DNA of 36,898 bases from a virus (lineage: Duplodnaviria > Caudoviricetes), in IMG/VR virus record IMGVR_UViG_3300037692_000224, positions 1 through 36,898 of that record; one strand, written 5' to 3'. Under the pieces are notes generated by a model. It ran no database searches, was not told the origin of the DNA, and was given only the letters and a program-made list of their open reading frames with translations. A program made the position numbers and the translations under genes. Shown piece after piece: positions 1,991 to 35,063 of this stretch (positions are counted from its first letter, which is position 1; each line of letters begins with the position of its first letter).

Positions 1991-2230
1991 ATGAAAAAGA
2001 GCAGTGTGAGAACGGTCAAAGACAGAACAAAAGCCAGGTCCTGGATGGTGGACAACCATATCCGGCAACGCGATATACAGCTCTCCCTGGGGCATCAATA
2101 CCCAGTGCAGGTATCAGAGACAATGCGAGGCGTTCGTTCTAACCGGGCTGTGCTGGAATATCTGCTTGATAAAGGTTGCCCTGGGGAATACCTGGCCCTT
2201 CCTTTAGATATACTGGAGGTTGAAAGATGA
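1991..2230 (+). CDS. Ner/Cro-like small DNA-binding protein
   Basis: 79 aa basic HTH-like protein in the ner position, with ATGA overlap with the transposase. Confidence 0.65.
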   Translation: MKKSSVRTVKDRTKARSWMVDNHIRQRDIQLSLGHQYPVQVSETMRGVRSNRAVLEYLLDKGCPGEYLALPLDILEVER

Positions 2231-4512
2231 AAGAGTGGTTGGCTGCAGCTGACTTGGTTGGATTGCCTGGGATGCCGGGCACTGTCCAGGGAATTAACGC
2301 AAGAGCAAAGCGGGAGGACTGGGCCTTCCAATCCAAACAAGGTCGCGGTGGCGGCAGAGAATACGCCGTCTCATCGTTACCGAAAGAAACCCGCGACGCA
2401 CTCTGTGAAAAAACCTTAGAGCTTTTACCTGTAAAGGCAGAAAAAAACAAGTCGCTCGCCGTCTACGATCCAGCGCCAGTGCAACCGCTGGCCGATTTGA
2501 AGCAGTGGCAGCGCGAAATATTCGACGCCAGGGTTATAATTTTCCGCGAATTTGAGCGATTGCAGGAACTGCATGGAACCAAGAGCGCGATTACCAAGCT
2601 GCTTGCCCTGGTTGAAACCAATAGTCTGCCAGACGAGCTGCAATATGCAGCAGAGCTGGCCAATGCCAGGCGGGGATCAGGTAGGACCATTTCAAGAGCA
2701 ATGATCCTGCGCTGGCAGAAAACAGTTAAGGAAAACGGCCTGCCGGCCCTGGCTCCAAAACCTGGCGCACAGTCGAACACGGTACCGGAATGGGCCAACT
2801 ACTTTATCAAGTCGTACAACCGGCCACAAAAGCCGTCAGTTACCGATGCCATGAATTTAATGACTGAAATCATGCCCGAAACAATGGCAATGCCGAGTTA
2901 TGACCAGGTCAAACGCTTCAATAAAAGCCGTTCAACCATCGACCGTGAACGTGGCCGTCATTCGCCCAACGCCCTCCGCAAATTCAAGGGCTATATGGAC
3001 CGGATAACCGACGATCTACAGCCGGGAGAGTTGTTTTTGTGCGACGGTCACAGCTTCAAAGCAAAAGTTGCGCACTTTGACCACGGTCGCCCTTTTCACC
3101 CTGAAGTCTGTTGTGTCATCTGCGCAAAGACCCGGCTGGCGGCGGGATGGTCGGCGGGTGTTGCCGAGTCCGGCCAGACTGTCGCCGATGCCCTGCGCCA
3201 TGCCATCACCGTCAACGATGGAAAACCTTATGGCGGGATTCCGGCCATCTTCTATACAGACGGCGGCTCGGGCAATCTCAGCAAGCTGAACACCCACAGA
3301 ATCACCGGCTTTTATGCCCGGCTGGGGATCACCCACAAGACGGGTATACCGGGCAATGCCCAGGGCCGGGGCATGGTGGAAATATTGAATAAATCGCTTT
3401 GGATAAGGGCCGCTAAGAAGTTGCCGACCTTCACAGGAAAAGAGATGGATTCGGGCGTGCAGCGCAAGGTTTATCAGATTCTTGATAAATCGGTCAAGAA
3501 GGGAGTTAAGGCGGATATCCTGCCGTCATGGAACCAGTTTATGGCCTGCTGTGCCGCTGAAATAGATGTCTATAACCGGACTCCGCATAGCAGCCTGCCT
3601 AAATGGACCGACCCTAATACCGGGAGAAAAAGGTACATGGCACCCCTTGAATATTGGGCTCTGCATGTTGTCGAAGGCTGGATGCCTACTGTCCTGCCTG
3701 AAGAGATGGTCAACGATTTGTTCTATCCGCAGATGATAAAAGCCACCAGGCGCGGAGCTGTCACTCTCTTCAAGAACCGCTACAGCAACCGCAATGTACT
3801 CGAACAATACCACGGGCAGCAGGTCATCGTGGAATATGACATCCATAACGCAGAGACAGTACGGGTCAGGGATATGCAGCAACGGCTGCTTTGCACGGCT
3901 TCATTTCAGTCGAGTCAGGCCCGGTTCTTCCCGAAAGAGGTCTCTCAGATCGCTATTGAGAACCGCATGAAAGGCCAAAAGAAACTTATTGCCAATAAAC
4001 TAGAAGATATCAACGCTCAACTTGGTCAGGCGATTGAAATAGAGATGGCCCCTACCCCGCTGACCGAGGATGAAGAACGCCGAGCAGCCGAACTGCTTGA
4101 CGCATACCAGGAGCCGGTTGAAGAGCCAATTGAATTTGACATGTCGCTGCTTGAGCCTCTTCGCCCGCATATGCCCGAGAAAGAGTTTGACGAGTCGCTG
4201 CTTGATGACCGTTTTACCCCGCCATCAGCAACGGAATCGTATGAGTACGACGATGCCGAGGAAGAGGATAGCGAACCGGAAAAAGTGCGGATCTTGCCGG
4301 ATGCCGTAATCGATGCCCGCAGGAAGTTCTCGCCGGTACCTGACGGCGACGCCTGGCTCAACCTGGACGGTTTTGAAAGGTTTGAATATCTGGAAAGATA
4401 CGAGAGTTTGACGGAAAGCCAACAGAAGTGGGTCGCCTACTACAAAACGACTGCCGAGTATGATTTTTTACAGAAATTATACAGGGATATAGAAGTACAA
4501 GAGAAAAAATAA
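2227..4512 (+). CDS. muA: Mu-type DDE transposase A
   Basis: N-terminal Mu HTH (WLAAADLVGLPGMPGT...GRGGGREY); catalytic D (CDGH), D (YTDGGSG) and E (GRGMVE); Mu-like C-terminal domain. Confidence 0.95.
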   Translation: MKEWLAAADLVGLPGMPGTVQGINARAKREDWAFQSKQGRGGGREYAVSSLPKETRDALCEKTLELLPVKAEKNKSLAVYDPAPVQPLADLKQWQREIFDARVIIFREFERLQELHGTKSAITKLLALVETNSLPDELQYAAELANARRGSGRTISRAMILRWQKTVKENGLPALAPKPGAQSNTVPEWANYFIKSYNRPQKPSVTDAMNLMTEIMPETMAMPSYDQVKRFNKSRSTIDRERGRHSPNALRKFKGYMDRITDDLQPGELFLCDGHSFKAKVAHFDHGRPFHPEVCCVICAKTRLAAGWSAGVAESGQTVADALRHAITVNDGKPYGGIPAIFYTDGGSGNLSKLNTHRITGFYARLGITHKTGIPGNAQGRGMVEILNKSLWIRAAKKLPTFTGKEMDSGVQRKVYQILDKSVKKGVKADILPSWNQFMACCAAEIDVYNRTPHSSLPKWTDPNTGRKRYMAPLEYWALHVVEGWMPTVLPEEMVNDLFYPQMIKATRRGAVTLFKNRYSNRNVLEQYHGQQVIVEYDIHNAETVRVRDMQQRLLCTASFQSSQARFFPKEVSQIAIENRMKGQKKLIANKLEDINAQLGQAIEIEMAPTPLTEDEERRAAELLDAYQEPVEEPIEFDMSLLEPLRPHMPEKEFDESLLDDRFTPPSATESYEYDDAEEEDSEPEKVRILPDAVIDARRKFSPVPDGDAWLNLDGFERFEYLERYESLTESQQKWVAYYKTTAEYDFLQKLYRDIEVQEKK

Positions 4513-8577: not shown

Positions 8578-8599
8578 CACTTAGGCACAACACTTAAAA

Positions 8600-8658
8600 G
8601 CGAAACCCCGGCAAGCCGGGGTCGTCGGCGGGCGGTTCCGTCGATCTGATGAGCAGCC
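8600..8658 (+). ncRNA. Hammerhead ribozyme, type II
   Basis: GC-GAAA, stem III (ACCCCGG/CCGGGGT), GTC cleavage triplet 8621-8623, 8-bp stem I (GTCGGCGG/CCGTCGAT), CTGATGA 8646-8652, then GC closing a 2-bp stem II. The 3' tail AGCC can pair with loop I GGTT. Confidence 0.9.
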
Positions 8659-8679
8659 ATAAATGAATTGAGGAAAAAC

Positions 8680-12381: not shown

Positions 12382-12411
12382 TTGACACAAACCACAACCA
12401 TGGGCTATCCT
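12382..12411 (+). promoter_or_regulatory. Putative sigma70 promoter of the c4-antirepressor unit
   Basis: TTGACA (12382-12387), 18-bp spacer, TATCCT (12406-12411). Confidence 0.6.
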
Positions 12412-12417
12412 CTCCAT

Positions 12418-12462
12418 GTTGCCGCAAAATCGGCAACCGGGATTGGCGTCCTGGAACAAAGG
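12418..12462 (+). promoter_or_regulatory. c4 a1b1-like upstream target element
   Basis: Hairpin GTTGCCG-caaaat-CGGCAAC, then TTGGCGT (12443-12449) and ACAAAGG (12456-12462), complementary to the two C4 single-stranded segments. Confidence 0.7.
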
Positions 12463-12528
12463 CGGACACCCGCCGCAGTAGTTTTTGTTGGCGGTTTTTT
12501 TGTGTCCGTGGTTTCGACTTCGCTTTTT

Positions 12529-12598
12529 GGCGGGTCGAGCAGGGAGCCTCACGGCTCGCCGGTCCCTTTGTCCGGTACGCCAACCTGTTCGGCCCGCC
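12529..12598 (+). ncRNA. c4: C4 antisense RNA (phage P1 c4 / P4 CI-like)
   Basis: Closing stem GGCGGGTCGAGCAGG/CCTGTTCGGCCCGCC, hairpin GAGCC-tcac-GGCTC, CCGG stem with loop containing CCTTTGT, then TACGCCAA. Confidence 0.8.
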
Positions 12599-12652
12599 TT
12601 TTTTTTTGGCGTAAAAATGGCGAAATATTCACAACCACAAAGGAGCAGCACC

Positions 12653-13330
12653 ATGAAAGAAATTACCGTAAAAGACATTCAGAACAGTATCATAAACCTC
12701 CCAAATAGACCTCCGGCTATGCTGGCAAATCAATTAGCTACAATCTACGGTGTAGAAACAAGACAGATCAACCGGGCAGTCAGTCGCAATCCACAGCGTT
12801 TCCCTGAAGATTTTTGTTTTCGAGCTACTGAATCTGAAGCAAAAAACCTGGTATCCCAAAATGGCACACCCCTAAGTCTTTTCGGTGGACACCTCCCCTG
12901 GATGTTCACCCGATTCGGCGCAAATATGCTTTCCTCCGTTTTAAAATCTCCGATTGCAGCGCAACGCGCAATCCAGATAATGCGGGCCTTCTCCATACTT
13001 GAAGAAACTTATCAGCAACCGCCGATCAACGATACCCAGCCCACAGCCTACGAATTACCAGACACCTCCTCCGGCGTCCCAGCTCATTGCATGGTAATCC
13101 CCATGAAGGAATACATTGAAATGCAAAGGGCCGAAATCAATTACCTGAAGAACATGCTGCCGAGCATGCAACCAAAAAAGAGGAGGCAAAACATACCGCT
13201 AACCGCCGAAAATCGCGCGGAAATAATCGAGTTGAAAAAGCAGGGTCATAGTCAGGCCGAGATAGCCAGGATGACAGGCCGTTCCAGTGCTACCGTGTCG
13301 TTTCTCTGTAATGCTGCCAAGGAGGCATGA
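12653..13330 (+). CDS. ORF6N-domain antirepressor with C-terminal HTH
   Basis: LATIYGVETRQINRAVSRNPQRFPEDFCF...FTRFGANMLSSVLKS...IMRAF is ORF6N-like; HTH SQAEIARMTGRSSATVS; SD AAGGAG before the ATG at 12653. Confidence 0.88.
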   Translation: MKEITVKDIQNSIINLPNRPPAMLANQLATIYGVETRQINRAVSRNPQRFPEDFCFRATESEAKNLVSQNGTPLSLFGGHLPWMFTRFGANMLSSVLKSPIAAQRAIQIMRAFSILEETYQQPPINDTQPTAYELPDTSSGVPAHCMVIPMKEYIEMQRAEINYLKNMLPSMQPKKRRQNIPLTAENRAEIIELKKQGHSQAEIARMTGRSSATVSFLCNAAKEA

Positions 13331-17357: not shown

Positions 17358-18857
17358 ATGACGGAAACAGCACAGCTAACAAAAAAGAACGCGCCGCCGA
17401 TAGCCGATGAAATAGCGGTAATAACCAAAGACATCGATATTACGGCGGGTTTCTTTCTCGATAACCCGGACAGCACCATCCTTACCGAATCAAAAGGCAA
17501 AGGGTTGAAGCTGTATGACGAGGTGGACCGTGACGCACATTCCGGCTCGGTGTTACAGACCAGATATCTGTCGGTTGCCGGGGAAAAATGGGAAGTCAAC
17601 CCCGGTGCCGATGATGCCAAATCGCGGGAGATTGCCGACTTTGTGACCCAGTCGCTTAAGGACTGCAATCTGCTCCAGGCGGTCCAGGAGCTGCTGCAGG
17701 GCATCCTGTACGGATATTTCATCGGCGAGATCATGTGGGAAGAACGGGACAAGACTATTGTTCCGGCTAAGATCCTGGCCAAGCATCCCAGGCGCTTCGG
17801 CTTTAGTAAAGAGCGGGAACTTCGCATGTTGACCAAGGCCCAGCCTAAAGAAGGCGAGGCGGTACCGGAGCGCAAGTTCATTGTGTTCAGCTACGGCTCA
17901 AGCGACAACCCCTACGGCAAGGCCCTTGGTCAGCGTTTATGGTGGCCGGTCTGGTTTAAAAAACAAGGAATCCGCTTCTGGCTCATCTTCCTGGAGAAAT
18001 TCGGCATGCCTACCGCCGTCGGCAAGTATCCCTCCGGGGCCAAGGCTGAAGACAAGAAAACCTTGAAAGAGGCTGTGGCTGCTATTCATTCCGAAACCGG
18101 CATCATCGTGCCTGATAGCATGGTGGTTGAGCTGATGGAGGCGTCACGGGGCGGCACGGTTACCTATGAATCACTCTGCGACTATATGGACCGGCAGATC
18201 AGCAAGGCGGTACTTGGCCAGACGCTGACCACTGAAGTATCCGGCCGCGGCTCCTATGCAGCATCCCAGACCCACGACGACGTGCGGCAGGATATAAAGG
18301 TCGCCGATGCCGGGATGATGGCGGAGTGCCTGAACAACACCCTTATCAAGTGGCTGGTTGACTATAACTATGCCGGGGTGACCGAATACCCGAGGATGGT
18401 TTACATCACCCAGAAAGAGTCGGTTTTAAAAGAACTGGCCGAGCGTGACGAGATCTTGACAACCAGGATCGGGGTCCAGGTTGCTGCTAACTATTGGTAC
18501 GACACCTACAACCTGCCGGTGCCTGAAGGCGGTCCCGCTGTTATTCCTCCGGCTACCGGCTATTCGTTGCCTGAATTTGCCGAAGAGGGAAAGGGCGGGT
18601 TTAGAACCCGTCCCTATGGGGAACATCAGAGAGCCCTGGATGAACTTGGTGCCGCTTCGGCTGCTGCCGATCCCCTGGCTGCAAATGAATCACAGCTGGT
18701 GGAAATCGTGCGCACTGCAAGCAGCTACGAAGAGGCCATGGATGGACTGCTGGCCTTTTATCCTCAGCTGGATGTGAGCAACCTGCAGGCCGGTTTGGAT
18801 AACGCTTTACTTAATGGAACGCTGCTCGGGCGCAGGATGGTGCAGGATGGTAATTGA
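17358..18857 (+). CDS. Portal protein (Mu gp29/DUF935-like)
   Basis: NPYGKAL, FLEKFGMP, ISKAVLGQTLTT and GSYAASQTH motifs. Confidence 0.93.
   Translation: MTETAQLTKKNAPPIADEIAVITKDIDITAGFFLDNPDSTILTESKGKGLKLYDEVDRDAHSGSVLQTRYLSVAGEKWEVNPGADDAKSREIADFVTQSLKDCNLLQAVQELLQGILYGYFIGEIMWEERDKTIVPAKILAKHPRRFGFSKERELRMLTKAQPKEGEAVPERKFIVFSYGSSDNPYGKALGQRLWWPVWFKKQGIRFWLIFLEKFGMPTAVGKYPSGAKAEDKKTLKEAVAAIHSETGIIVPDSMVVELMEASRGGTVTYESLCDYMDRQISKAVLGQTLTTEVSGRGSYAASQTHDDVRQDIKVADAGMMAECLNNTLIKWLVDYNYAGVTEYPRMVYITQKESVLKELAERDEILTTRIGVQVAANYWYDTYNLPVPEGGPAVIPPATGYSLPEFAEEGKGGFRTRPYGEHQRALDELGAASAAADPLAANESQLVEIVRTASSYEEAMDGLLAFYPQLDVSNLQAGLDNALLNGTLLGRRMVQDGN
18592..18617 (-). repeat. REP-like palindrome inside the portal ORF, copy 2
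   Basis: AGGGCGGGTTTAGAACCCGTCCCTAT is nearly identical to 22865-22891 and is read in frame as KGGFRTRPY. Confidence 0.7.
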
Positions 18858-19623
18858 CCAGGACTTCGCACTGCCCATGAGGGGTGCCCAGGCTTTCTGG
18901 CGGGACAAGGTCCAGATGGGACCCGGCGAGTTCAAAGCCGTAGCCGAGGAGGTCAAGACCCGTGCCTTTGCCGTCTCGGGCATTGCCAAGGGCGACGAGC
19001 TGAACACGGTCTTTCAGGCTCTGCAGAGAGCTATCGATAACGGCACCACGTTTAAAGACTTCCAGACCGACTGTGAAGAGACTTTCGCCCGGCGCGGCTG
19101 GAACGGCAAGAACCCGTGGCGGGTGGCCAATATCTTCCAGACCAATACACAGACCGCCTACAACGTTGGCCGTTACGACCAGCTGCAGGCCGAAAAGGAT
19201 ATCCTGCCCTACTGGATGTATGACGCCATCAACGACGGTGTGGTCAGGCCGACGCATCGGGATATGGACGGCAGAGTCTACCCGGTCGATCATCATATCT
19301 GGAACAGCTGGTATCCACCCAACGGCTACGGCTGAAGATGCTCGGTGTCAGGTCTGACACGGGAGCAGGTAAAAGACCGGGAGGTGGAGATTGCCATAGA
19401 TAACCCGGACAGCGGAGAGACCGAGCTGGTTAATACCAGCACAGGTGCCGTACGACAGGCGGGGTCAATCAGCCCGGATGTAGGCTTTGAGAATAATCCG
19501 GGCAAAGACTGGTGGCGGCAGACGGACAAGATCATCCGGGACAGGTTGAAAAGTTACCCGCCCGAACTGGCCCGTTTAGTCGAAGCGGAGCTCATGGAAC
19601 TGATAAAGGGGAAAACGTCTTAA
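18847..19623 (+). CDS. Head morphogenesis protein (Mu gpF/SPP1 gp7 family) with in-frame TGA at 19333-19335, candidate selenoprotein (258 aa)
   Basis: ORFs 18814..19335 and 19345..19623 share one frame. Read-through gives YPPNGYG-(TGA)-RCSV, matching the family motif PPNGxxCRC; also IFQTN...AYNVGR and D..VRPTH. A SECIS-like hairpin follows. Confidence 0.85.
19339..19367 (+). promoter_or_regulatory. Putative bacterial SECIS element
   Basis: TGCTC-g-GTGTCA-GGTC-TGACAC-gg-GAGCA starting 3 nt after the TGA; the apical CAGGTCTG equals the apex of the E. coli fdhF SECIS (GGTTGCAGGTCTGCACC). Confidence 0.7.
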
Positions 19624-19727
19624 AATGACCGCCACGCGATTTTTTAACACTTTAGCGCTTGGTGACACGGGCAACATGCCGTGCGTCAAGCACAGAAGAA
19701 TTTAAACATAGTTTAAACGTACATTCA

Positions 19728-20294
19728 ATGTTCAGCGCAGGAATAAAAATCGATGACCGGGAATTGCAAACGGTTCTGACCAGGATTGTCCAGCGAGGGA
19801 CAAACAAGGGCAACGGCCTGAGAACTATCGGCGCAATCGCCCGGGAATCCATCCGCTATAACTTCCGGGCGGGAGGCAGGCCGAACAAATGGCAGGCGTC
19901 CAAACGGGTGGAAGGCAAGCGCGGCCAAACGCTGAGAAAGAGCGGCAGGCTGATGAATTCCATCAGCTCAACCCTGGCCGGTGACCGGGTGATTGTCGGC
20001 ACTAATGTTATTTATGCCGCCGTGCACAATTACGGAGCCAAGAAGGCCAGCTTCGGGACTGTGGTGGCAAGGGTTCCTGCCCATACTAGGAAAAACGCTG
20101 CCGCGAACATGACCAGCGGCAGAAAGAAGACGGCCAGCGGAGTGAGCTTTGTGCGGGCGCATACCAGGAAGATGTCTCTGCCCTGGGGTGATATCCCTGC
20201 CAGGCCGTTCATGCTGCTGCAGCAGGAAGATATCGTGTCGATAGAATCGGCGATAGCAAATCATATGATAGGAGGCGTAAATGCCAAAATTTAA
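19728..20294 (+). CDS. Virion morphogenesis protein (Mu gpG / tail completion S family)
   Basis: LRKSGRLMNSI, VGTNVIYAAVHNYG and IPARPFM motifs. Confidence 0.9.
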   Translation: MFSAGIKIDDRELQTVLTRIVQRGTNKGNGLRTIGAIARESIRYNFRAGGRPNKWQASKRVEGKRGQTLRKSGRLMNSISSTLAGDRVIVGTNVIYAAVHNYGAKKASFGTVVARVPAHTRKNAAANMTSGRKKTASGVSFVRAHTRKMSLPWGDIPARPFMLLQQEDIVSIESAIANHMIGGVNAKI

Positions 20295-32234: not shown

Positions 32235-33761
32235 ATGGCTAATAGCTATACAAATCGGTTGAAAAAACGTCTGCCTGCTGTCGCCGATCCTGGCTGGGGC
32301 GATGAATGGCATGATAACGAAAAGATTGACGATGTCATACAAGGGGCATTGCTGACCGTCAACCGGGTTATTTCGGGCGGTGCGGTGACGGATGGCGGCG
32401 GCTTAACTGTCGATTATACTGATGCTGTTATCCGGCTGGCCGGGGCGCAACTAGATATCGTCGCCGGTAATGTGGCGTTGACTGGCGCACAGGCAGGGGC
32501 ACAGCTGTCCAACTGGCTGTATATCAACGACAGCGGCGCGGTGACGGTTTCCTTGACACCGCCTTCCGGTAATTATATTCCCCTGGCCCTGATTAATACC
32601 GATAGCGTCGGTATCGCGGTCGATGGCGGTGGTAACCCGCTGATTGCGGACCTTCGACCGATGACCGAGGCCGTTTATTTTGCGCCTCCAACTCTTGCCG
32701 ATGCCGGTAAAGCATTGACGGTTATGCCTGATCAGTCGCTTGCTTACCAACAATTTTTAGCTCTCTATCCAACGTTTTACCAGCGGACAGATCCCTTTGC
32801 CATAGTCGCGGCTGGAACAGCTGCCGGACGGCGCAGTCTCCTCACCCCCTCAGCGTTGGGGCTGGTTGTCAACTCTGCATTGTTAACATTCTCTCAATTA
32901 ACAATTGACCTCTCCTTAACGGCCAGCTGGGACAGCATCACCCCGACAAACTATACAGTTGCGGCAAGCCGTGCCGGGAAGAATTTCTACATTTATGCTA
33001 TCGCTGACGGTTTATTGATCTCTGCTAATTCAACTGTCCCTGCAGGGTATACAGCTGATAATAGTCGCAAAGTCGGCGGCTTTCATTGCCTCTGTGTAAA
33101 TGTGGGAACCATTTCAGGCCATCCCCTAACCGGCTTTTTAGCAGGTGATATACTCCCGGCCTCCGTTTGGGATCTTGCACATCGTCCGGTCTGTTCGCCA
33201 GAGGGGATGGTCTATAGTACAGGTAACGGATTATGGGTGGATATCTATCTGCAATCAGGCACAGGGACAAACACGGCGAGCGCCTACGGTGCAACAATCA
33301 CCGATACCCGAGATTGGATGGATTTCGTTGATGACTTGAGGGCCGTGAGCAAACGCCTGTTGACGGACCCTGAGTTCCAGGACATCGCCGCAGGCTCAAA
33401 TGAGGAAACAAATATTACCGGATCTGCAGATCCGGTAACCACAGGTGGGCATATCGATACGGCAGGGCGCAGGATGATTTCAGCAATTGGCTGTGAAGAT
33501 TGCTGCGGGGTTTTAAATCAATGGTTACAGGACCAATCCTTCAGGGCGGAAGCTAGCCAGACGTTTGCCTGGTTTGATCTCCCTGGAGCAAAAGGCAGTC
33601 TGTATATGCAAGGCGCTTTTGGGGACGTTAAGCTGGTCGCGGGTGGTAATTGGGCGATTGGTTCGTATTGCGGGTCGCGGTCGCGTAATGCGAATAGCTA
33701 TCGCTGGTCTACGAATGCGGTTATCGGTTCTCGCGGCTGCGCCCAACGCCAGGGAGCGTAA
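32235..33761 (+). CDS. Tail fibre / receptor-binding protein, DGR target with C-terminal CLec-like domain
   Basis: Mtd-like motifs SVWDL.HRP...EGMV, WVDIYL, GCEDCCGVLNQW and GGNW...GSRG; contains the variable repeat. Confidence 0.88.
   Translation: MANSYTNRLKKRLPAVADPGWGDEWHDNEKIDDVIQGALLTVNRVISGGAVTDGGGLTVDYTDAVIRLAGAQLDIVAGNVALTGAQAGAQLSNWLYINDSGAVTVSLTPPSGNYIPLALINTDSVGIAVDGGGNPLIADLRPMTEAVYFAPPTLADAGKALTVMPDQSLAYQQFLALYPTFYQRTDPFAIVAAGTAAGRRSLLTPSALGLVVNSALLTFSQLTIDLSLTASWDSITPTNYTVAASRAGKNFYIYAIADGLLISANSTVPAGYTADNSRKVGGFHCLCVNVGTISGHPLTGFLAGDILPASVWDLAHRPVCSPEGMVYSTGNGLWVDIYLQSGTGTNTASAYGATITDTRDWMDFVDDLRAVSKRLLTDPEFQDIAAGSNEETNITGSADPVTTGGHIDTAGRRMISAIGCEDCCGVLNQWLQDQSFRAEASQTFAWFDLPGAKGSLYMQGAFGDVKLVAGGNWAIGSYCGSRSRNANSYRWSTNAVIGSRGCAQRQGA
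33631..33744 (+). repeat. DGR variable repeat (VR)
   Basis: 114-bp ungapped match to 33804-33917 with 12 mismatches, all opposite TR adenines. Confidence 0.95.
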
Positions 33762-33803
33762 TTCGAGGCGATTATTTTTGAAGAAAGGGCAAATGCTATA
33801 GGC

Positions 33804-33917
33804 AGCTGGTCGCGGGTGGTAATTGGACGAATGGTTCGAATTGCAGGTCGCGGTCACGTAATGCGAATAACTATCGCTGGAATACGAATGCGAATATCGG
33901 TTCTCGCAGCTGCACCC
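33804..33917 (+). ncRNA. DGR template repeat (TR)
   Basis: Adenine-retaining copy of VR with nine AAY codons in the VR frame, located between target gene and RT. Confidence 0.93.
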
Positions 33918-34052
33918 GGATACAGGAACAGAAGTCAAACTCCCTGGCTGAGCATTTGTCCATGTTTATTAGGGCAACCAAAAGGCAAAATACACGACGG
34001 AGATTGCAGGCGGTTAGTAGGCATGACCGAAAGCCACCTGCAAAATTTAATT

Positions 34053-35063
34053 ATGGCACAAAGACACGGTAATTTATTTGCAAGCATTGTTGACAGTGGC
34101 AACCTCAGTGAAGCCCATGCCAGGGCCAGGAAGGGTAAGTCAGCCATGAGCAATGTGATAGATTTTGACCGCGATATTGAAGGGAATCTGAAGCGGGTCA
34201 GGCAGTCATTGATGGACAAAACGTTTACCACTTCAAAATATCAGGAAAAGTTGATTCATGTCCCAAAAACGAGAACTATCTATGTCTTGCCTTTCAAGCC
34301 CGACCGGATAGTCCAACACGCACTCATGCGAGTGGTTGAGCCGATTTGGGATAGGCTGATGATTAGCGACTCCTATGCTTGCAGAACAGGCAAAGGACAG
34401 CACACGGCAAGCAGGCGGACAATGGAATTTGTCCGTCAATATAAGTACTACCTTCAGGCTGATATTTCCAAGTTTTACCCGAGCATAGATCAGGCTATTC
34501 TAGCGGATATCGTCCGGCAAAAAATCAAATGCAAGGATACCTTGTGGTTAATAGACGATATCATTTACTCATTCCCCGGCGAAAAGAACGTGCCAATCGG
34601 CAACTATACTTCGCAATGGTTTGGTAATCTTTACCTGCATGAGCTGGACCGTACAGTCAAACACGTATATAAAATACCTGCTTACCTCAGGTACTGTGAT
34701 GATTTTTGCCTCTTCAGTAACGACAAGCGCCAGCTGCAGGAACTTAAAGAAACCATACGGGAATTTCTCGCGGAAAAGTTGAAACTTACCTATAGCTTTG
34801 CAGAAGTTTTTCCCACTAAACACGGGGTTGATTTCCTCGGATATCGGCACTTCCCTAAAGGTTATATCCTGCTCAGGAAGAGCACAGCCCAAAGGGTTAA
34901 ACGACGATTAAAGTTACTGCCGAAGCTGCTCGCCCTGGGGAAGGTCACGCCGGAACAATATCGCTCATCCCTTGCCTCGACAAGAGGCTGGTTAAAGTGG
35001 GCAAACACTCATAATTTGCAGGTTGCAACCTGCCTTGATCGATTGGAGGGAAAGCTGAAGTGA
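34053..35063 (+). CDS. DGR reverse transcriptase
   Basis: DRIVQHA, SYACRTGKGQH, ADISKFYPSI, PIGNYTSQWFGNLYL, YLRYCDDF and GVDFLGY; ~336 aa from the ATG at 34053, with no maturase or endonuclease extension. Confidence 0.95.
   Translation: MAQRHGNLFASIVDSGNLSEAHARARKGKSAMSNVIDFDRDIEGNLKRVRQSLMDKTFTTSKYQEKLIHVPKTRTIYVLPFKPDRIVQHALMRVVEPIWDRLMISDSYACRTGKGQHTASRRTMEFVRQYKYYLQADISKFYPSIDQAILADIVRQKIKCKDTLWLIDDIIYSFPGEKNVPIGNYTSQWFGNLYLHELDRTVKHVYKIPAYLRYCDDFCLFSNDKRQLQELKETIREFLAEKLKLTYSFAEVFPTKHGVDFLGYRHFPKGYILLRKSTAQRVKRRLKLLPKLLALGKVTPEQYRSSLASTRGWLKWANTHNLQVATCLDRLEGKLK

Follow-up and report, generated by a model that had tools for sequence, protein, structure and literature searches.

A candidate selenocysteine codon in the gpF head protein gene of a Mu-like phage

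The DNA examined here (the window) is the whole 36,898-nucleotide virus record IMGVR_UViG_3300037692_000224, a Mu-like phage of 36.9 kb with genes for a Mu transposase (2227-4512), repressor, lysozyme, portal, head and tail. Its MuF/gpF minor head protein gene contains an in-frame TGA at a conserved cysteine position, which raises the question of whether this codon ends the protein, marks a broken gene or is decoded as selenocysteine (Sec). On comparative sequence evidence we consider it likely, with good confidence, that codon 163 is read as selenocysteine by the SelB and tRNA-Sec of the host. That the gpF family is recoded at this codon is very likely; the window gene is slightly less certain, because its hairpin is short-spaced and its Desulfobacterota host is no more than likely. 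An earlier, sequence-only reading of this DNA had proposed a host-decoded Sec codon followed by a hairpin of the selenocysteine insertion sequence (SECIS) type, and this core is supported by the recurrence of the codon, control codons, selection past the stop, hairpin enrichment and Sec-positive hosts.

The gpF gene and its in-frame UGA

18847..19623, + strand: MuF/gpF (SPP1 gp7-like) minor head protein gene, 258 codons with TGA163 read through; identified by PF04233, TIGR01641 and full-length Cys homologues
19333..19335, + strand: in-frame TGA, codon 163, predicted Sec163, first Cys of the C-R-C motif (from alignment and recurrence)
19339..19341, + strand: Cys165, second Cys of the motif, where the TGA sits instead in the relatives L079 and L081
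19255..19257, + strand: His137 of the R-x-x-H motif, invariant, predicted partner of Sec163 and Cys165 in a metal site

The TGA at 19333-19335 is the sole internal stop of the frame 18847-19623, which terminates in TAA, and it lies within PPNGYG*RC. The two observations from which the sequence-only reading set out, a lone internal TGA and its position at a conserved cysteine of gpF/gp7 proteins, therefore both hold. The read-through protein matches PF04233 over residues 54-167 (E 3e-21; 76.7 bits against a cut-off of 29.6) and TIGR01641 (54 against 39.65), and has full-length Cys homologues at 58-82% identity. Across 66 aligned sequences (65 homologues and the read-through query) C163-R164-C165 is invariant, as is His137. 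The R-x-x-H motif was found in 143 of 144 loci, and SPP1-gp7-type relatives have CxxC in the corresponding stretch.

The window gpF is a "short" MuF protein without an effector tail, having about 90 residues after the domain and no second Pfam match. A MuF polymorphic toxin is ruled out, as a C-terminal effector extension of at least 100 aa is absent (criterion of PMC5576092). No solved structural relative was returned by sequence, Foldseek or VIA-align searches, the best VIA-align Z (6.2) being restricted to the C-terminal helix pair; the AlphaFold model has a predicted local distance difference test score of 81.

The TGA itself was verified on assembled contigs. Those of three further runs (X2, X3 and X4) span the codon unchanged, likewise that of the possible source run (X1), and the metagenome contig L057, identical to the window at 721 of 726 nt, also keeps the TGA. 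Contigs of runs X5, X6 and X7 do not reach the codon. For a contig of run X12, at about 89% identity, no change is listed at the codon, although 5 of its 24 differences are not listed and it was therefore not counted. A sequencing or assembly error is rejected on the unchanged TGA in X2, X3, X4 and L057. As TGA also terminates 13 of the 45 selected plus-strand open reading frames (ORFs) of the window, it is an ordinary stop in this genome, and the head genes beside gpF align without internal stops in 23 of 27 TGA loci (the other 4 gave no hit). Genome-wide reassignment of TGA (codes 4/25) is rejected on both grounds, as had been supposed earlier from the intact neighbouring genes.

Recurrence of the UGA and selection past it

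Three collections (viral, genome and metagenome) were scanned for the motif with TGA at the first cysteine (Cys1), and matches scoring on a hidden Markov model of Cys homologues were taken as true gpF. On this basis the viral collection gave 13 true matches out of 16, the genomes 5 out of 11 and the metagenomes 15 out of 23; the remaining 3, 6 and 8, respectively, were dropped as false. Including the window, there are 27 distinct TGA sequences, or 24 once near-identical ones are collapsed. Further members with TGA at Cys1 came by other routes: L006 (60% identical), L221 (a prophage in genome G290) and L212/L218. The last three are of the SPP1 gp7 type, with CxxC upstream and TGA at the same first Cys, and L221 combines a GC-rich hairpin with a Sec-positive host. 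A scan with an SPP1-type motif gave 2 true matches of 18, amounting to one distinct peptide; L006 and L016/L017 were missed by the motif expression and assessed by hand. In addition, eight further protein records stop precisely at the codon of the first Cys. The nine records ending there in all, which are probably mis-truncated in annotation, are as follows.

Database proteins ending at the Cys1 codon, 152-162 aa: P0123, P0126, P0127, P0128, P0043, P0053, P0061, P0081, P0122

A tree was built from 254 sequences of the upstream domain; 31 of its rows are TGA or truncated, and 18 changes are needed to account for them (shuffled mean 29.7). One all-TGA clade has five members, and all-TGA clades span about 64-92% identity. 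The expectation that diverged phages would carry TGA at the same codon is thus borne out, in 24 distinct gpF genes with a median identity of 43%. Some 6,400 viral stretches match the motif as Cys versions against 13 with TGA, which puts the Sec form at ~0.2% of the viral genes that match the pattern and makes it both rare and scattered.

Control codons behaved differently. Within the viral collection, none of the 5 matches with TGG at Cys1 was a true gpF, and TGA or TAA at the Trp preceding the motif gave 0 matches. At the second cysteine (Cys2) 2 of 13 matches were true, both of them TGA (L079 and L081, giving C-R-U), with no TGG. The 112 Cys genes hold no internal stop in 15,676 codons, the single stop found being a natural end. 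An unbiased sample of 401 genomes, evenly drawn from the phylum of Desulfovibrio cuneatus (G002), yielded 67 PF04233 matches, three with TGA at Cys1 and three with other stops (2 TAG and 1 TGA at a non-Cys codon); leaving out the centre genome, TGA at Cys1 was seen in 2 of 66, where about 0.03 would be expected from the three other stops (p 4e-4). The phylum of an Alistipes metagenome-assembled genome (MAG; G009) gave 0 stops at the Cys and 1 TAA among 34 PF04233 matches in 301 genomes.

Beyond the motif, the frame of the TGA genes stays open for 52-321 codons. Downstream ratios of nonsynonymous to synonymous substitution (dN/dS) were 0.07-0.28 in 8 of 12 TGA-TGA pairs, the other 4 being saturated, and similar (0.23-0.30) in three TGA-Cys pairs; for the window against its TGA relative L004 the ratio was 0.28. 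These values show purifying selection on the codons that follow the TGA. Part of this selection in the window clade may predate the TGA, because the ancestral state is uncertain there.

Cys and Sec forms lie close together in the family. Two 90% clusters each mix full-length Cys and truncated records, and in the window clade of the tree, rows with TGA or a truncation are interspersed among those with Cys, L006 being a TGA member further out. Recent switching that left the hairpin behind would fit the existence of Cys relatives that retain it; the alternative order, in which the hairpin came first and made a UGA tolerable, also fits. A parallel is found in Cys-reverted selenoprotein genes with remnant SECIS elements (FdhA and HesB-like; PMC1794560), to which the Cys relatives L001, L002 and L114 are alike in keeping the hairpin. 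Those genes, however, show mostly one-way change from Cys to Sec, whereas gpF switching appears frequent and two-way inside clusters of 90% identity.

The candidate SECIS hairpin and the hosts

19339..19367, + strand: two-tier hairpin, candidate bacterial SECIS; upper stem 19345-19360, loop GGTC at 19351-19354, 15 nt after the UGA

The hairpin is formed as first described, by a lower tier of TGCTC (19339-43) with GAGCA (19363-67) and an upper tier of GTGTCA (19345-50) with TGACAC (19355-60). Its fold is -15.1 kcal/mol (z -3.8), and 0 of 200 shuffles were as stable. Its 8-nt apex has the same sequence as the apex of the E. coli fdhF element. It differs from that element in its perfectly paired upper stem and in lying 3 nt nearer the UGA, the latter as had been claimed: CAGGTCTG begins 13 nt after the UGA in the window and 16 nt after it in fdhF. 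This likeness is present in the window but is clade-specific. The more proximal hairpin with an fdhF-like apex, 15 nt from the UGA, is shared by the window, L057 and L004. Most of the other TGA members form another hairpin, whose loop is some 23-26 nt from the UGA, a spacing close to the 19-22 nt found in the selD genes of three hosts. Within the window clade, the window, L004 (TGA) and L002 (Cys) have the same hairpin codons GTG TCA GGT CTG ACA, the latter two agreeing over the upper 16 nt, although about half of the synonymous sites elsewhere differ among the sequences that share these codons. This suggests selection on the RNA.

Across the family, the 45 nt after the codon fold more stably than expected under synonymous randomisation in TGA genes (mean z -1.0, n = 24) than in Cys genes (-0.18, n = 112; p 1.6e-4), and three control segments gave no such folding difference between TGA and Cys genes. 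We then applied the published bacterial SECIS (bSECIS) rules, as implemented in the present analysis, which ask for a loop of 3-9 nt, an upper stem of 4-16 bp, a G in the first two loop positions, a minimum free energy (MFE) of -7.5 or below and a spacing of 16-37 nt from UGA to loop (PMC13188914). They accept 18 of 24 TGA genes against 27 of 112 Cys genes (p 4e-6). The window hairpin agrees with the rules for loop (GGTC), stem (6-bp upper stem) and MFE (-15.1 kcal/mol). In about 13% of catalogued selenoprotein genes there is no canonical SECIS (PMC13326102). Covariation, proposed earlier as a check on the hairpin, was seen in part: in the main family register 5 of 7 pairs show compensatory changes, with 0 of 500 shuffles as high in pairing and covariation score, while a second register, the RNAalifold consensus and the window clade itself were negative (see below).

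Window DNA occurs in sediment and soil metagenomes, and no RNA data set is listed with it. Most of the named relatives of its gpF and transposase (44-54% identity) belong to Desulfocapsa, Desulfobulbaceae, Desulfofustis, Desulfobulbus, Desulfuromusa and Syntrophotalea, with one from Rhodanobacter, which makes a host among the Desulfobacterota likely. The window itself contains neither a tRNA gene nor an Rfam match to tRNA-Sec. Related TGA prophages occur in genomes of a Pseudomonadales MAG, Desulfovibrio cuneatus DSM 11391, Ca. Bilophila faecipullorum, a MAG from the D. cuneatus phylum sample and a Nitrospiraceae MAG, besides G290. The selA and selB genes and tRNA-Sec were found in all six (in G290 the tRNA-Sec match scored 52.6 bits against a cut-off of 47), and selD in 4 of the 5 tested. 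The Pseudomonadales case, L034, lies in a complete MAG chromosome with selA, selB, selC and selD, and is the only host seen that is not of an anaerobe type. With the Sec pathway present in 16,621 of 64,762 species (PMC13326102), six Sec-positive hosts of six would have a probability of 3e-4 if independent. Of the sel genes that the sequence-only reading wished to see confirmed, selA, selB and selC are present in six hosts of related prophages, among which the host of the window phage does not figure.

Weighing the readings and the predicted protein

Several observations weigh against selenocysteine and temper the results above. The relatives L001 (82% identical) and L002/L003 (76%) have Cys together with the same hairpin, and 15 of 17 loci from one relatives search were Cys. 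The 8 truncated protein records do not display the codon at which they stop, and decayed gpF genes do exist (the 3 other stops among 67 matches; L222-L224, with TAG or a non-Cys TGA). The window hairpin is weaker when judged by synonymous-codon randomisation (z -1.96, p 0.04; row L057), and singly only 5 of 24 TGA genes reach p<=0.05 in this comparison. Its spacing, 15 nt as counted here, is 1 nt under the 16-nt bound, whose counting convention may differ. None of the 8 window hairpin pairs has a compensatory change among 6 clade sequences, the second family register is not above shuffles (157 of 500), registers slip, and RNAalifold gives no consensus structure over 23 TGA loci. A register test (17 of 24 TGA against 9 of 112 Cys genes) was chosen after seeing the data; for this reason, and because the sequences are related, all p values are optimistic. 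No hairpin of the model type was found in the Cys2-TGA genes L079 and L081, nor in L212. Lastly, selA is also present in 3 of 5 control (chance-hit) genomes, and 4 of the 6 hosts are or probably are Desulfobacterota, a Sec-rich group. With hosts partly related and selA in the controls, the host association is modest; the Sec-positive hosts are supporting rather than decisive.

Many of these points would suit a nonsense mutation in a dispensable head gene, in which TGY changed to TGA by chance and the change lasted because gp7-like proteins are not essential, while the hairpin would arise incidentally from the codons for VSGLT. The closest relatives with Cys and the same hairpin, the decayed genes L222-L224, the dispensability of SPP1 gp7 for assembly (PMC6316719) and the marginal p of 0.04 are all in its favor, and the sequence-only reading had named such relatives as the mark of a one-off mutation. 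These relatives do not refute selenocysteine, because TGA recurs in many lineages and the clade holds both forms. A mutation of this kind would also have to account for TGA at one codon in 24 or more lineages where equally easy control changes gave none, for all-TGA clades, for purifying selection past the stop, for the enrichment of hairpins in TGA genes and for the same TGA in three further runs. Decay of gpF is real, but it does not explain the pile-up at Cys1, and we regard this explanation as improbable.

Somewhat less probable again is that the UGA is read as cysteine, through the selC* tRNA-Cys(UCA) and SelB* of some Desulfobacterales or through leaky suppression, the product being an ordinary Cys protein. 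When placed in E. coli, deltaproteobacterial selC* tRNAs inserted Cys at an opal codon of the Sec type (PMC5389517), and the likely host group overlaps the carriers of selC*. However, opal-anticodon selC* is mainly confined to one Desulfobacterales subgroup, whose genomes also have a full Sec system (PMC5389517), and TGA gpF genes also occur in Pseudomonadales, Nitrospiraceae and Desulfovibrionaceae genomes.

The least probable alternative that we weighed is a programmed, regulatory split, with the UGA a true stop after a 162-aa protein and the C-terminal part made separately, from the GTG at 19345, or at a low level.

19345..19623, + strand: in-frame GTG ORF, 92 aa (from the ORF list)

This ORF, the Val at codon +4 in 21 of 24 TGA loci and the downstream purifying selection, which a split would likewise yield, are compatible with it, but the stop lies inside the invariant CRC motif at the Pfam domain end and always at a Cys codon, only about half of the loci spell the Val as G-T-G, and the GTG is buried in the stem with no Shine-Dalgarno-like run before it (by eye).

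Returning to selenocysteine, the following mechanism would account for the observations. Host SelB would bind the hairpin 3' of UGA163 in a Sec-using Desulfobacterota, giving a 258-aa product in which Sec163, His137 and Cys165 may ligate a Zn-type site. In character the motif seems closer to a metal site than to a redox UxC. One or two copies of the product may then enter the particle by way of the portal and help in DNA delivery, as SPP1 gp7 does, and by analogy with SPP1 gp6-gp7 the portal is its likely binding partner. In SPP1, gp7 attaches to the portal and few copies of it are packed; assembly proceeds without it, but infectivity is affected, only about 25% of gp7-less virions being infectious (PMC6316719, PMC5576092). 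When selenium is short, termination would leave a 162-aa fragment without the metal site and lower infectivity, with assembly not stopped; the earlier suggestion that particle production is tied to selenium is probably too strong, since SPP1 gp7 is dispensable for assembly. As Cys and Sec forms have been interconverted many times, Sec would be a permitted, host-dependent substitute rather than a requirement. More tentatively, and with clear reservations, MuF/gp7 proteins may form a virion selenoprotein family, in which temperate phages of Sec-using, mostly anaerobic hosts repeatedly and independently recoded a metal-site ligand, each evolving an SECIS within the gene, so that infectivity would hang on host selenium and host range on SelB compatibility.

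The neighbouring genes are those of a head module.

17358..18857, + strand: portal gene, overlapping the gpF start (PF06074, E 4e-110)
19659..20294, + strand: gpG-like virion morphogenesis ORF, downstream and intact (PF05069); true start probably ATG 19728

With other MuF1/Phage_Mu_F proteins (PF04233, TIGR01641; Mu gpF, SPP1 gp7) the window gpF shares the domain, the place directly after the portal gene and the short architecture. It differs in having UGA at codon 163, and a role in portal binding and infection is known for SPP1 gp7 only. With E. coli fdhF and other bacterial selenoproteins (PMC13188914) it shares the UGA at a conserved Cys, many Cys homologues, a 3' hairpin, a G at the loop start and Sec-positive hosts; in contrast to these it is a late structural gene of a phage and does not encode a redox enzyme of the cell.

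Catalogued prokaryotic selenoproteins are cellular and mostly serve redox or metal handling. A phage head protein is absent from the 119-family table in the available text of PMC13188914 (a 2026 review) and from the 87-family table in that of PMC9312934, and neither "phage" nor "capsid" occurs in the accessible main texts of deep-Sep and BSepDB; the BSepDB supplement has no phage term in the part searched, which may end before the family table. No phage selenoprotein is named in the available portions of 10.1101/2022.07.06.499078, PMC5029168, PMC1976440, PMC5512222 and PMC5389517, and a literature search, partial in its sources and not covering subscription papers, found neither a phage selenoprotein nor a Sec-containing gpF. 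If our reading is true, Sec use extends to bacterial viruses and to a structural, DNA-delivery role, and phages adapt to the host recoding apparatus with genes that get annotated as truncated. The coexisting Cys and Sec alleles inside 90%-identity clusters would then be a rare natural series on SECIS origin and decay and on non-catalytic Sec, and the conserved site would point to an overlooked metal center in the poorly understood MuF domain. Because Desulfovibrio cuneatus DSM 11391 carries a TGA-gpF prophage (L035), the claim is testable in a cultured strain.

Elsewhere in the window, a diversity-generating retroelement occupies 32235-35063, with a reverse transcriptase at 33816-35063 (PF00078), a template repeat at about 33804-33917 and a variable repeat at about 33630-33743. 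The variable repeat is located where an Mtd-like tail-fibre gene has its 3' end. The two repeats differ at 12 of 114 positions, all at template adenines. A type II hammerhead ribozyme (RF02276, 56 bits) lies between genes of the early operon at 8598-8662 (+). C4 antisense RNA and its a1/b1 target (RF01695 and RF03163, with an overlapping isrK match) are found at 12405-12604 (+), ahead of the ORF at 12485-13330, which we take to be antirepressor-like.

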